This document shows positions 7,324 to 13,503 of a stretch of DNA of 64,000 bases, piece by piece. A program made the translations under genes and the position numbers. The stretch is from assembly GCA_963714015.1 (NCBI GenBank), contig OY970223.1, forward strand, positions 2,304,001-2,368,000, given 5' to 3'. The DNA is from Vulcanimicrobiota bacterium. GTDB taxonomy: Bacteria > Vulcanimicrobiota > Vulcanimicrobiia > Vulcanimicrobiales > Vulcanimicrobiaceae. The notes under the pieces were generated by a model. It had not been told where the DNA came from. It was given only the letters and a program-made list of their open reading frames with translations, and made no database searches. Each line of letters starts with the position of its first letter. The first letter of the stretch is position 1.

Positions 7324-8832
<1,509 letters not shown>

Positions 8833-10051
8833 AGTACATGCAGTTGGTTCACGCCTAGCGTGAATGCAACTGCGGAGTACATTCTAAGTCGACCACAGAC
8901 GATGCCATCGAAAACGCGACCATGACTTGCCGGCAACGGTAAGGGAAGTCGCGGACCAGGGGTCTACCGAGCATCTCGCTCGTATGGCTGAGGTTCATGG
9001 CCGTTATTGTCATCCGTTGTCGCCCTATGGGTTGTCAAGGGATTACAGTTGACGATGCGCGGCTCTCTTAAAAAGAGGGTTTATCATTTCCGTCCGGCCG
9101 CTCTTGTCTGGTTAGGCCGCTTGAAGCCGTCCTGATGTTCGCATCACAAGGTTCCAAGCAACGACACCAGTCAAGGCGGAGGATCAAGATACTGCACTGT
9201 TCAGCTTTGAGGGAACGAACCTCGCTGCAGTTGACCATTTCGGTGTGTCACTGATTTGCGAAAGTTCCACTCAAGGCCCGATCGAGGCTATCGCTCTCGG
9301 CACGCGTTTTCAAGGAAATCGTGTCCCGAGCGCAAGGCAGTTTTCGGCCGCCGTTTACTTTGGTAAACAAGGTCGAAAACAACGCAGCGATCGGACACGA
9401 GATCCTTGAAAACTGCATAGAGAAGAACTTTCATGTGTCAAACATGAAGCGGCCCGCAGCGGCTTATTTCCGTAATCGCTGTGGGTGCAATTTCAATTTA
9501 TATTGAGAATCAGTCAAAAATTAATAAGAGCACGAGGTGGATACCTTGGCTCCACAGGCGATGAAGGACGTACCAAGCTGCGATAAGCCAGGAGAAGCTG
9601 CTAAGAAGCGAAGATCCCTGGATTTCCGAATGGGGCAACCCCCGAGCCGTCATGGGCTCGGACTCCACGATGAATTCAATAGTCGTGAGAGAGCGCACCC
9701 GGTGAACTGAAACATCTAAGTAGCCGGAGGAATAGACATCAACCGAGATTCCCCTAGTAGTGGCGAGCGAACAGGGAACAGCCTAAACCGCGTATGTGCA
9801 AGCGATCAGGCGTTGCATGCGCGGGGTTGTACGGCAACCATCTCAGCACTGATCTGCTGAGCGCAAGTTACAAAATCGATCGATAGCGGAAGCCGGCTGG
9901 AAAGCCGCACCACAGAAGGTGATAGTCCTGTATGCGAAATCAATCGATCTTGCGGAGTTGTTCGTGAGTAAGGCGGGGCACGGGAAACCCTGTCTGAAGC
10001 TGGGAGGACCATCTTCCAAGGCTAAATATTCTGTGGAGACCGATAGCGCAT

Positions 10052-10084
<33 letters not shown>

Positions 10085-10564
10085 GAGGGGAGTGAAATAG
10101 AACATGAAACCGCGTGCTTACAAACCGTGAAAGCACTATTTTTATATGTGTGATTGCGTGCCTATTGAAGAATGAACCTGCGAGTTACTTGGTACGGGCT
10201 AGGTTAAGGTGTTGAGCCGGAGCCGTAGCGAAAGCGAGTCTGAATAGGGCGCTTTGTCCGTATCAGTAGACCCGAAACCAAGCGATCTATCCATGAGCAG
10301 GGTGAAGCATGATTAACCTCATGTGGAGGCCCGAACCTGTTGTTGTTGAAAAAACATTGGATGACTTGTGGATAGGGGTGAAAAGCCAATCGAGCTTGGA
10401 GATAGCTGGTTCTCCCCGAAATAGTTTGAGGACTAGCGTTACGATTTAACCCTTGGGGGTAGAGCACTGACAGGGCTAGGGGGCTTACCGGCTTACCGAA
10501 CCCCATCAAACTCCGAATACCGAGGCGAACATCGTAGCAGTCAGACGGTGGGGGATAAGCTCCA

Positions 10565-10605
<41 letters not shown>

Positions 10606-11015
10606 TAATATATGCTCAGTGGTAAAGGAAGTCTCGTCGCACAGACAACTAGGAGGTTGGCTTAGAAGCAGCCACCCTTGAAAGAGTGCGTAATCAGCTC
10701 ACTAGTCGAGTGATGGGGCGCCGAAAATGTAACGGGGCTCAAGCATATAACCGAAGCTTTGGGATTATGTCAAACATGATCGGTAGGGGAGCGTTGTAGC
10801 GTAGGCAGAAGGTCGACCGCGAGGACGGCTGGACGAACTACAAGTGCGAATGCAGGTATAAGTAGCGAGAAAAGAGAGTGAGAACCTCTCTCGCCGGAAG
10901 TCTAAGGTTTCCTGAGCAACGTCAATCGTCTCAGGGTGAGTCGGGAGCTAAGCCGAGGCAGAGATGCGTAGGCGATGCACAAGCAGTTCATATTCTGCTA
11001 CCACCGATGACCGTT

Positions 11016-11198
11016 TGATTACTTCCGAACAATGTTAAGTCGTATCGCCTCTTCGTCTTTTGTTAGACGAAGCGGCTCTTGATTTTCTCTCGAGCGCTAT
11101 GCCGGCGCCGGCGCCGCAATCTACTGGATTGCAAGCCGATCGACGGCGACGCGATCGAAGAAAACCAAAGACGGCTTACCATCGTTCGTAGGTAATCA
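11016..11198 (+). other. Intervening sequence (IVS) in 23S domain III, near E. coli position 1415
   Basis: 183 nt of extra sequence closed by a 28-bp imperfect stem (11016-11043 with 11171-11198). Confidence 0.8.
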
Positions 11199-11711
11199 TG
11201 AATCGAAGGGATGACGGAGGAAGATATGCCAGCGCACCGATGGATGCGTGCGTTTAAGCTGGTAGGGGGTCACGTAGGCAAATCCGCGTGGCTAACCCCG
11301 AGAAGCGAATACGAGGATCTTCGGATCTGAAGTGGCAGACTCTACGCTTCCAAGAAAAGTCTCTAGATAGGATCATAGGTGCCCGTACCGTACACCGACA
11401 CAGGTAGACTGGCAGAGCATGCTAAGGCGACGGGAGAACCCCTGTTAAGGAACTCGGCAAATTGACCCCGTAACTTAGGGAGAAGGGGTGCCTTCTTCGG
11501 TCTAGTTTTTACAACGAAAGCTGAGGGAGGTCGCAGAAAATAGGTCCAAGCGACTGTTTAACAAAAACACAGGTCTCTGCGAACGCGAAAGCGGACGTAT
11601 AGGGGCTGACTCCTGCCCGGTGCTGGAAGGTTAAAGGGAGAGGTTAGCGCAAGCGAAGCTTTGATCTGAAGCCCCAGTAAACGGCGGCGGTAACTATAAC
11701 CGTCCTAAGGT

Positions 11712-12019
11712 AACAACTTTATCGTTGCCTCATCGCGCGGTAACGCGCGAACGAAAACATCACTATATGCGGGAACATCCTTAGAGCCCGGCCTACTCAT
11801 CGGCGACTCTAGCACCATCGTGGTGCGTCGCCGGAAGTAAAAATGGTCCGGGATTGGACAATCCGCAGGAAACCTTACGGTCGTAAGGGATCCTCAGAGA
11901 CTACACGTGATGCTCCGGCTTTTCAAAAAACTGCAGACGCGTATGCGCTGCGGGATTTTGTCTAGGTTGCCGGATGAAGATATAGTCCACTCTTGCGTGA
12001 AAGCGCCGGAAAAAAAGTG
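11712..12019 (+). ncRNA. Group I intron at L1931 (IB-like), no homing endonuclease ORF
   Basis: Splits CCTAAGGT|AGCGAAATTCC; ends in G; P/Q/R/S elements ATGCGGGAA, AATCCGCAG, TCAGAGACTACA, AAGATATAGTCC; P3 CATCAC/GTGATG. Confidence 0.95.
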
Positions 12020-12061
<42 letters not shown>

Positions 12062-12317
12062 AGTAACGACTTGGACACTGTCTCAATGGGGGGCCCGGCG
12101 AAATTGCAGTACCAGTGAAGATGCTGGTTACCCGCGGCAGGACGGAAAGACCCCATGAAGCTTTACTGTACCCTGATGTTGGGGTCTGAGATTTTCTGTA
12201 CAGGATAGGTGGGAGGCGATGATCTGTGGGCGCTAACTCACAGGGAGCCAACCTTGGGATACCACCCTGAAAATCTTGGGCTTCTAACTAGCTGCCGTAA
12301 TCCGGTAGTAGGACAGC

Positions 12318-12387
<70 letters not shown>

Positions 12388-12590
12388 AACGGTCAGAAAC
12401 CGTTCGTTTAGAGTGCATAGGCAAAAGGGAGCTTGACTGCGAGACGGACAGGTCGAGCAGGTGCGAAAGCAGGGCTAAGTGATCCGGCGGTACCGAATGG
12501 AAGGGCCGTCGCTTATCGGATAAAAGCTACTCTGGGGATAACAGGCTTATCTCCCCCAAGAGTCCACATCGACGGGGAGGTTTGGCACCT

Positions 12591-12880
12591 CAACATCAGG
12601 GGTGTTGCGCTGGAAACAGCGGCAAAAGTTCCGGCTTATAACGGTGAACTCCAATCGGTCTAGGACTGGACCGAGGACAATACCGTGGGAAGTCCACGCG
12701 AGAGCGATCTGCGTGTGACCCCGTAACGACTGATTCGTTCGCAAGAACGATGAGATAGTGACTGCTGCGCGATGCGTCGCGCAAATTTATCAGCGCTATC
12801 AGACGCCGGCCCTTAACTCGAGAATCGCTCGAGAAAGGTGAAGATATAGTCTGCGCCATCGGGAACGATGGAATTACGCG
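12591..12880 (+). ncRNA. Group I intron at L2500 (IA-like), no homing endonuclease ORF
   Basis: Splits GGCACCT|CGATGTCGG; ends in G; P/Q/R/S elements AACGGTGAA, AATACCGTG, CGTAACGACTGA, AAGATATAGTCT; extra helices between R and P3'. Confidence 0.93.
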
Positions 12881-12913
12881 CGATGTCGGATCGTCGCATC
12901 CTGGGGCTGTAGT

Positions 12914-12950
<37 letters not shown>

Positions 12951-12958
12951 TACGCGAT

Positions 12959-13007
<49 letters not shown>

Positions 13008-13373
13008 TTAGAGATTTGAGGAGTGTCGACCCTAGTACGAGAGGACCGGGTTGAACGAACCGCTGGTGAACCGGTTGTCCCGCCAGGGGCATAGCCGGGT
13101 AGCTATGTTCGGACCAGATAAACGCTGAAAGCATATAAGCGTGAAACTGACTTCAAGATGAGATCTCGATCACGTAAGTGTGAAGGGTCGTGGTAGACTA
13201 CCACGTTGATAGGCCGGAGGTGGAAGCACTGCAAGGTGTGGAGCTGACCGGTACTAATCGCCCGGAAATTTTTGACTCGTCTTCCTCTGTCTGGCACTGA
13301 AAGTTCTTCTGTATGCAGCTTTCTCATCGTCACAGCCTGGAGCTCCGGCTCGGCGTGACGGTGAGGATCAAGT

Positions 13374-13490
13374 TTCTGGCGCTCATAGCGGCGGGGTCCC
13401 ACCCGTTCCCATCCCGAACACGGCAGTTAAGCCCGCCAGCGCCGATGATAGTCGGACCGCAGGGTCCCTCGAAAGTAGGTCGGCGCCAGA
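13374..13490 (+). rRNA. rrf: 5S rRNA
   Basis: CCCGTTCCCATCCCGAACACGGCAGTTAAG...GCCGATGATAG; TCTGGCG/CGCCAGA terminal stem. Confidence 0.97.
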
Positions 13491-13503
13491 TTAATTCCAA
13501 ACG

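Follow-up and report, generated by a model that had tools for sequence, protein, structure and literature searches.

What is a 290-nt insertion doing in the peptidyl-transferase centre of the only 23S rRNA gene of a bacterial genome, and how could working ribosomes be made from such a gene? The question arises in the window, which is the whole 64,000-nt stretch of Vulcanimicrobiota DNA analysed here. The insertion is very probably an intact, endonuclease-less, IA3-like group I intron, and self-excision from the precursor is its predicted fate.

The site of the insertion was defined by comparison with E. coli (Ec). A blastn alignment of E. coli rrlH (L001) with the window splits at Ec2501, as seen from both sides, and leaves a gap of 290 nt. 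A motif search identified U12590, the last base of the 5' exon, as Ec U2500. Both results bear out an earlier sequence-only reading of the window, which had placed a 290-nt insert after U2500 (L2500). The boundary is ambiguous by one base, as either C12591 or C12881 could equal Ec C2501. It was set at U12590/G12880 because group I rules want a 5' exon ending in U and an intron ending in G, and the same boundary is found in all 20 complete relatives examined in the phylum sample. The host gene belongs to a complete rRNA operon (Table 1) and shows two gaps against rrlH, one after Ec U1931 and the other after Ec U2500. The genome is a single contig of 3.56 Mb with 0.06% contamination. A 551-nt query covering exon and intron matched one place in this genome, and the intron alone likewise matched only one; therefore, the interrupted 23S gene is the sole one.

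Can the insertion be folded as a group I intron? The region between the two junctions is confirmed as one by its sequence, with a complete predicted set of helices P1 to P10, P9.0, and a P3/P7 pseudoknot (Table 1). P1, including its U.G splice pair, the P10 pairing, P3, and the terminal G had all been proposed in the sequence-only reading, and each was found where it was expected, as was the proposed P7 pairing of GACU with AGUC (12728-12731/12848-12851). The "about 70 nt" of extra helices that the same reading had noted after R turned out to be P7.1 and P7.2, which together span 65 nt. P7 was assigned by position and by analogy with the group I core, and its G12728-C12851 pair is presumably the one that binds guanosine.

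Table 1. Features of the rRNA operon and of the predicted L2500 intron, in window coordinates.
Feature	Position	Strand	Basis or remark
16S rRNA gene	7324-8826		Rfam; operon complete in window
23S rRNA gene (host gene)	9514-13277	+	RF02541, 2661 bits; genome's only one; 2 interruptions
Second group I intron, after Ec U1931	11712-12019	+	308 nt, ORF-less, ends in G; RF00028 79.1 bits, above cut-off
L2500 group I intron	12591-12880	+	290 nt, ORF-less; rrlH alignment gap; RF00028 21.3 bits; R1 170.8 bits; homologues in relatives
Intronless 23S target sequence at site			GGCACCTCGATGTCGG
P1, exon GCACCU / guide GGGUGU	12585-12590 / 12600-12605	+	splice-site wobble U12590.G12600; C12591-G12599 extends helix into intron
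P10 guide ACAUC	12594-12598	+	complementary to 3' exon GAUGU 12882-12886; sequence reading
P2, short hairpin, GAAA loop	12605-12624	+	both-side changes in 8/8 pairs (8 sequences)
P3, CCGGC / GCCGG	12631-12635 / 12805-12809	+	100% of cells paired; 2/5 pairs compensatory
P4-P5-P5a-P5b domain	12641-12686	+	ACGGUG/UACCGU, UCC/GGA, UCGG/CCGA, CUA/UGG
P6/P6a, plain hairpin	12687-12722	+	36 nt; 12 pairs, 6 compensatory, 100% paired
P7, A[C]GACU (C12727 bulged) / AGUCU	12726-12731 / 12848-12852	+	5 pairs, invariant 8/8
P7.1 (GCAA loop) and P7.2 with inner hairpin	12735-12750 and 12755-12799	+	IA-type extension between P7 and P3', 65 nt
P8 hairpin	12811-12838	+	11 pairs, 8 compensatory
J8/7 and P7 3' strand, UGAAGAUAUAGUCU	12839-12852	+	invariant in family (three alignments: A1, A3, A5)
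P9.0, GCG 12853-12855 / CGC 12877-12879, enclosing P9 hairpin 12856-12871	12853-12879	+	
Terminal G (omega-G), 3' splice site	12880	+	G in 20/20 complete L2500 introns of phylum sample
5S rRNA gene	13375-13491		Rfam

Evidence for this fold comes from related introns. Among 41 related genomes searched, seven have the insertion, the window genome included, and since one genome carried two copies, eight sequences could be aligned. The RNAalifold consensus of these eight contains P1, P2, P3, P4-P5, P6, P7.1, P7.2, P8, P9.0, and P9; of its 99 pairs, 45 show compensatory changes. A hand-written structure that includes the P3/P7 pseudoknot was then counted on alignment A3 of the same eight sequences. 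Standard pairs filled 95.6% of 705 cells compared with 31-43% in controls in which the 3' partner was slid by 1-3 columns, and 45 of 91 pairs had changed on both sides compared with 5-13 in these controls, a contrast that is inflated because the eight sequences are related and the structure was partly derived from them. None of 500 shuffles matched the observed value on any of five covariation measures (eight homologues).

Support is spread over the core. P3, P4, P5, P6, and P8 occur in canonical order, are 92-100% paired, and each display compensatory changes; the two counted helices of the P4-P5 domain are paired in 100% and 96.1% of cells and have three compensatory pairs. Outside of these helices, 11 of the 19 pairs of P7.1/P7.2 and five of the six pairs of P9 are compensatory, and two of the three P9.0 pairs change from G-C to A-U in three of the eight sequences (GCG/CGC to ACA/UGU). 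The six counted pairs of P1 are invariant in all eight sequences, and P7 is both invariant and 100% paired, so that covariation is neutral for these two helices. The U.G wobble and P1 are kept in all eight aligned copies and in all 20 complete copies of the phylum sample, where the guide reads GGGGUG. The P10 guide, ACAU(C/U), is kept in most relatives and varies in length among copies, while the 3' exon is invariant. J8/7, UGAAGAUAU, is invariant as well.

The window sequence on its own leads to a similar structure. Its single-sequence fold has an energy of -120.4 kcal/mol (z = -4.27; none of 100 shuffles was as good), and the centroid recovers P1, P2, P3, P4-P6, P7.1, P7.2, P8, and P9. The general Rfam model for group I introns, RF00028 (Intron_gpI), gives a mixed result. 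The covariance-model hit that had been looked for exists in that the alignment runs end to end over model positions 1-253, with the P3, P4, P6, P8, J8/7, and P9 blocks in register and the region of J8/7 and the P7 3' strand set against the consensus GAAGAUAUAGUC. It falls short in that the score, 21.3 bits (E 0.0025 in a 391-nt search), does not reach the gathering score of 50, and the L2500 intron was absent from a gathering-score scan of the whole window.

To which type of group I intron does it belong? A short P2, a short P5, the 65-nt P7.1/P7.2 insert, and P9.0 make the architecture IA3-like, the subgroup being placed by architecture. This supports the earlier description of an IA-like, ORF-less intron at L2500, as the extra helices were found at 12735-12799 with 11 of 19 pairs compensatory. 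Relationships among introns were gauged with R1, a covariance model of the 3' half (P7 to omega-G) that was built from the eight sequences and that scores the window intron at 170.8 bits, a value that is high by construction. R1 scores descend from 140-172 bits for L2500 copies of the own phylum to 110-121 bits for L2500 copies of two other phyla, 106-109 bits for L2593 introns of relatives, and 57-78 bits for introns after U2473 in relatives, and end at 14.3 bits for the L1931 intron of the same gene. It follows from this series that the L2473, L2500, and L2593 introns form one family and that the L1931 intron lies outside of it; the latter is unrelated to the L2500 family. The group I introns of Coxiella and Thermotoga 23S genes, at other sites and of another type, are presumably nearer to this L1931 intron than to the L2500 intron.

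The U2473 introns are about 240-300 nt long and lie directly before CCACAUCGACGG, at a site that the publications consulted do not list. They were seen at six loci (L016-L021, from G030, G032, G037, G007, G017, and G040) and in the Chloroflexota sample too (L210, L211, and L214). In some genomes of the class, a single 23S gene houses two or three members of the family, at U2473 and 2593 (L016, L017, and L018, from G030, G032, and G037). In one of them, G037, six R1 matches on two contigs suggest two rRNA operons with the same introns. Further R1 matches are introns located in the stretch Ec 1923-1951 of 23S genes from Actinomycetota and Chloroflexota (L174, L180, L181, L212, and L213; at most 104 bits). 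The L2500 intron family seems to extend to domain IV sites.

How would such an intron leave the precursor? The chemistry, as we infer by analogy, would follow the standard group I pathway. The guide GGGUG(U) would pair with exon GCACCU, so that P1 presents U12590.G12600, and a free guanosine held at the G12728-C12851 pair of P7 would attack after U12590. P10 (ACAUC/GAUGU) would hold the 3' exon and, together with P9.0, would let G12880 enter the same pocket. The freed exon end would then attack after G12880, yielding the ligated sequence ...GGCACCU-CGAUGUCGG... in the peptidyl-transferase centre.

The sequence-only reading held that this copy must splice to give active ribosomes, which is soundly inferred from the single 23S gene: removal of the intron would be required for normal ribosomes because the genome contains no intronless 23S gene. 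Furthermore, the sustained compensatory evolution of the predicted ribozyme core fits a need for removal. The presence of an intron alone is no proof of its removal because a 23S group I intron of Simkania is reportedly unspliced. By this precedent, a title cited in PMC11270868, the window intron could have a group I fold without self-splicing, in which case the mature 23S rRNA would either retain the intron or, once host RNases had cut the intron out in the manner of an intervening sequence, be left in fragments. The sub-threshold RF00028 score of 21.3 bits also leaves room for this alternative. However, the core elements have all been preserved (the splice-site U.G pair, the G-C pair of P7 with its bulge, J8/7, P9.0, and omega-G), and the intron interrupts the sole 23S gene within the peptidyl-transferase centre. 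Moreover, 45 of 91 pairs hold through double changes among hosts whose exons are up to 16% apart, a constraint that an RNase-excised relic would escape. Retention or RNase excision is improbable on this evidence, and self-splicing stays the preferred reading.

Metatranscriptomes were also considered as a source of evidence for splicing. Contigs on 12300-13100 that carry the exon joint 12590->12881 were found in four of four soil metatranscriptomes, with a shorter side of only 19-21 letters. The joint was rejected as evidence because it is the universal intronless 23S sequence and occurs also in intronless relatives with 100% identical flanks. Summed depth over the four metatranscriptomes was about 940 to 7.5 million in exon bins versus 0-15 in intron bins, and the one 175-nt intron contig (X15) has eight differences and so comes from a relative. 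These data are dominated by rRNA of the whole community, with contigs that are not attributable to the host, and were counted neither for nor against splicing.

Group I introns may carry a gene for a homing endonuclease, and does the window intron carry one? No conserved ORF was found in the 290-nt intron. A 108-aa antisense frame at 12596-12922 was rejected as a gene, because its start falls within the conserved exon and the frame shifts in the 96%-identical copy of a same-genus genome; the earlier description of the intron as ORF-less is therefore upheld. Relatives are different in part. Five of the 20 complete L2500 copies of the phylum sample are 806-824 nt long, each with an open frame of 198-217 aa; two of these five were scanned, and both are hits to PF03161 LAGLIDADG_2 (E 1.6e-37 and 2.2e-33). 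The extra ~520 nt of the long copies sit in the P6 loop (alignment A6), and the stop codon TGA lies inside the P6 3' strand. In four loci (L146, L147, L157, and L158, from G107, G156, G115, and G142), the open endonuclease frame continues upstream across the ribozyme core (P2-P5) and the P2 stem contains an ATG, so coding and catalytic RNA may overlap by ~100 nt.

The endonuclease-free copies seen are 272-353 nt long (287-353 nt for the 15 of the phylum sample), and a 332-nt copy in one genome (G031) retains the first bases of the endonuclease insert. A search of the window genome for the LAGLIDADG_2 enzyme of the relatives returned nothing save 39 residues, which stem from the intron's own 5' core read as protein. 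Because the genome has no homologue of the enzyme and relatives have its gene, the window copy is a derivative of a homing intron without the endonuclease gene. One model is that the family spreads by homing, with the P6 loop supplying the gene for the LAGLIDADG_2 enzyme that drives it, and that the window copy, having wholly lost the endonuclease gene, would now be inherited vertically, or would be kept only because precise loss is rare.

How widespread is the L2500 intron? A survey of 23S genes in relatives had been proposed in the sequence-only reading, and it found the L2500 intron in 21 of 151 genomes of the phylum. Each phylum sample consisted of 151 genomes, and an R1 match was taken at E <= 0.001; the phyla sampled are named from record titles of the centre loci and from what we take to be the phylum membership of those names. 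In the own phylum, these 21 genomes hold 22 R1 matches of 133-172 bits, 21 of which were confirmed at L2500. Both L2500 junctions are present in 20 of the 21 loci fetched; the remaining one (L150) ends at a contig edge, and a second copy in one genome (G033) was confirmed separately. All confirmed L2500 introns of the phylum start with CAA, and all 20 complete ones end in G. R1 matches of any kind occur in 40 of the 151 genomes and, with G000 not counted, are distributed over 33 of 71 genomes of family f1, six of nine of family f3, and none of 70 in the other 19 families.

The type is also found outside of the phylum. R1 matches occur in 29 of 151 genomes of Actinomycetota (eight of 12 fetched loci at L2500), 17 of 151 of Omnitrophota (six of 12 at L2500 and five at L2593), 28 of 151 of Patescibacteria (five of 12 with both L2500 junctions), and four of 151 of Chloroflexota (one at L2500 and three after U2473). 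Two Actinomycetota genomes (G292 and G220) are flagged as unpublished, and the locus of the former (L172), one of the eight at L2500, is excluded from claims. The 151-genome sample of Planctomycetota gave no rRNA intron, its single weak R1 match lying outside of rRNA, and that of Pseudomonadota gave no R1 match. Actinomycetota and Omnitrophota were chosen for known matches and the other four outside phyla came from chance loci. Many of the genomes are fragmented and their rRNA is often unassembled, so the fractions are lower bounds, and since these are samples, absence is not implied. A scan with a 14-base junction pattern gave at least three true homologues (L039, L067, and L123), while 116 of the 119 loci listed were chance matches outside of rRNA. 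Thus, the L2500 intron type is not rare: besides the own phylum, no fewer than four further bacterial phyla have it. The suggestion that it may be little described in this lineage stands in so far as no report in print was found, and does not stand for the element itself, which is common. In the three Patescibacteria loci whose intron ends were read (L198, L203, and L208), the L2500 introns start with UAA and end in A rather than G, before CGAUGUC; the L2500 copies read from the other four phyla all end in G.

The history of the window copy can be approached through its relatives. A genome of the same genus (G002) carries the intron at this site too, 96% identical and flanked by exons that are 99.5-100% identical. 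By blastn, identity to the window copy is 70-80% for introns of same-family hosts, whose exons differ by 5-8%, and 74-76% for introns of another family of the class, whose exons differ by about 16%; the comparison is crude, as blastn was applied to short introns with partly unalignable loops and no tree was built. That intron identity is similar despite the divergence of the exons hints at some horizontal movement.

Could the window copy itself still move? It could do so if it were reverse-spliced into 23S rRNA that lacks the intron, or by homing if a co-resident relative provided an endonuclease in trans; it would then be a live parasite and not a stranded copy. The intron and exon identities just given are consistent with such mobility, as are the mixture of copies with and without the endonuclease gene within one genus (g34) and the occurrence of the L2500 family in five phyla. 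However, the genome has no endonuclease gene, the same-genus copy at the same site fits vertical descent, and the identities come from the crude comparison described above. Continued mobility is thus very unlikely, and a stranded copy without its endonuclease gene is the reading that is kept. Least probable of all, to the point that it can be set aside, is an assembly artefact in which a foreign intron-bearing rRNA fragment was merged into the operon: rRNA operons are often chimeric in metagenome assemblies, but this one lies in a single 3.56-Mb contig with 0.06% contamination, the intron recurs at this site in a genome of the same genus, between exons that are 99.5-100% identical, and 20 other genomes of the phylum carry an L2500 intron.

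The introns of the phylum include endonuclease-bearing and empty copies side by side. A tentative reading, to which we give somewhat less than an even chance, is that the 23S genes of this uncultured soil phylum may be a hotspot of one expanding IA3-like family at three sites near the peptidyl-transferase centre (U2473, U2500, and 2593), passing through a full homing cycle that includes jumps between sites in free-living, non-CPR hosts, and that the U2473 site may not yet be in print.

For the window itself, the result amounts to the correct annotation of an ordinary mobile-element remnant and little more. Its wider meaning is practical. Primers based on 23S and callers of rRNA genes fail on L2500-type inserts, and the general group I model of Rfam misses the L2500 family at its cut-off. 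The natural variants of 272-353 nt, free of an endonuclease gene, and their rich covariation make the family good material for structural and ribozyme work. In print, rRNA introns are treated as rare outside of CPR in the passages of PMC11270868 that deal with this question; the present samples show them to be frequent in several further uncultured phyla.

How does the L2500 intron compare with known systems? Among the papers returned, judged by title or the start of the abstract, nothing was found on rRNA introns of the host phylum, and no paper pairing "L2500" with "group I intron" was found. Table 1 of Haugen et al. (2007; PMC1995217) gives bacterial 23S introns at L1917, L1931, L1951, and L2593 only, in agreement with the classic bacterial sites named in the sequence-only reading. 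The same reading had described L2500 as known mostly from organellar LSU introns, and organellar introns at this site are documented: GISSD holds 22 organellar introns at site 2500, according to a statement in Pombert et al. (2013; PMC3873408). One of the organellar kind, Floydiella Ft.rrl.6, occupies the same position (Ec 2500/2501) in the description given in PMC2997540; it is classed as IB and not IA, and the likeness drawn here is one of site.

Closer parallels exist among prokaryotes. In the sections of Nawrocki, Jones and Eddy (2018; PMC6125680) on archaeal introns, IA3 introns are placed at LSU/2500 (IA3.2 and IA3.3) and LSU/2593. The LSU/2500 introns share with the window intron the E. 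coli-numbered site, a prokaryotic LSU host, and an origin in metagenomic assemblies. The same sections put L2500 and L2593 under one subgroup model, and here R1 matches the L2593 introns of relatives at 106-109 bits. The archaeal introns are given there as 770-820 nt, whereas the window intron is bacterial, 290 nt long, and ORF-less; the two are likened by architecture.

Another parallel is found in CPR/Patescibacteria, for which Tsurumaki et al. (2024; PMC11270868) describe 23S group I introns that are concentrated near the peptidyl-transferase centre. Copies with a LAGLIDADG gene and ORF-less ones share sites there, which the authors read as a homing cycle, and copies are likewise mixed here. 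In the portions of that paper on intron sites, 23IS9-11, 13, and 14 are said to be "not reported in any known bacteria", and non-CPR bacteria are deemed intron-poor. Site 23IS11 is printed beside the "2500" tick in Fig. S3, its exact coordinate not being given in the text portions concerned. The window host, by contrast, is not a member of CPR, and in the Patescibacteria sample analysed here L2500 accounts for five of 12 loci.

Bacterial 23S genes with one or two group I introns are also described for Coxiella burnetii and Thermotoga (L1917, L1931, and L1951) in the tabulated data of PMC1995217. The cyanobacterial L2593 introns treated in the same source (Synechococcus C9, S. lividus C1, and Thermosynechococcus) resemble the window intron in their short P2, their short P5, and a P7.1/P7.2 extension of ~65 nt, and their hosts resemble the window gene in having several introns in one bacterial 23S gene. 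They differ in that they sit at site 2593 and, in the entries given there, all carry a single-motif LAGLIDADG gene, whereas the window copy sits at 2500 and carries none, and the gene of its relatives belongs to PF03161. Several bacterial phyla share a family of introns at L2500, and the window intron is one of its ordinary members.
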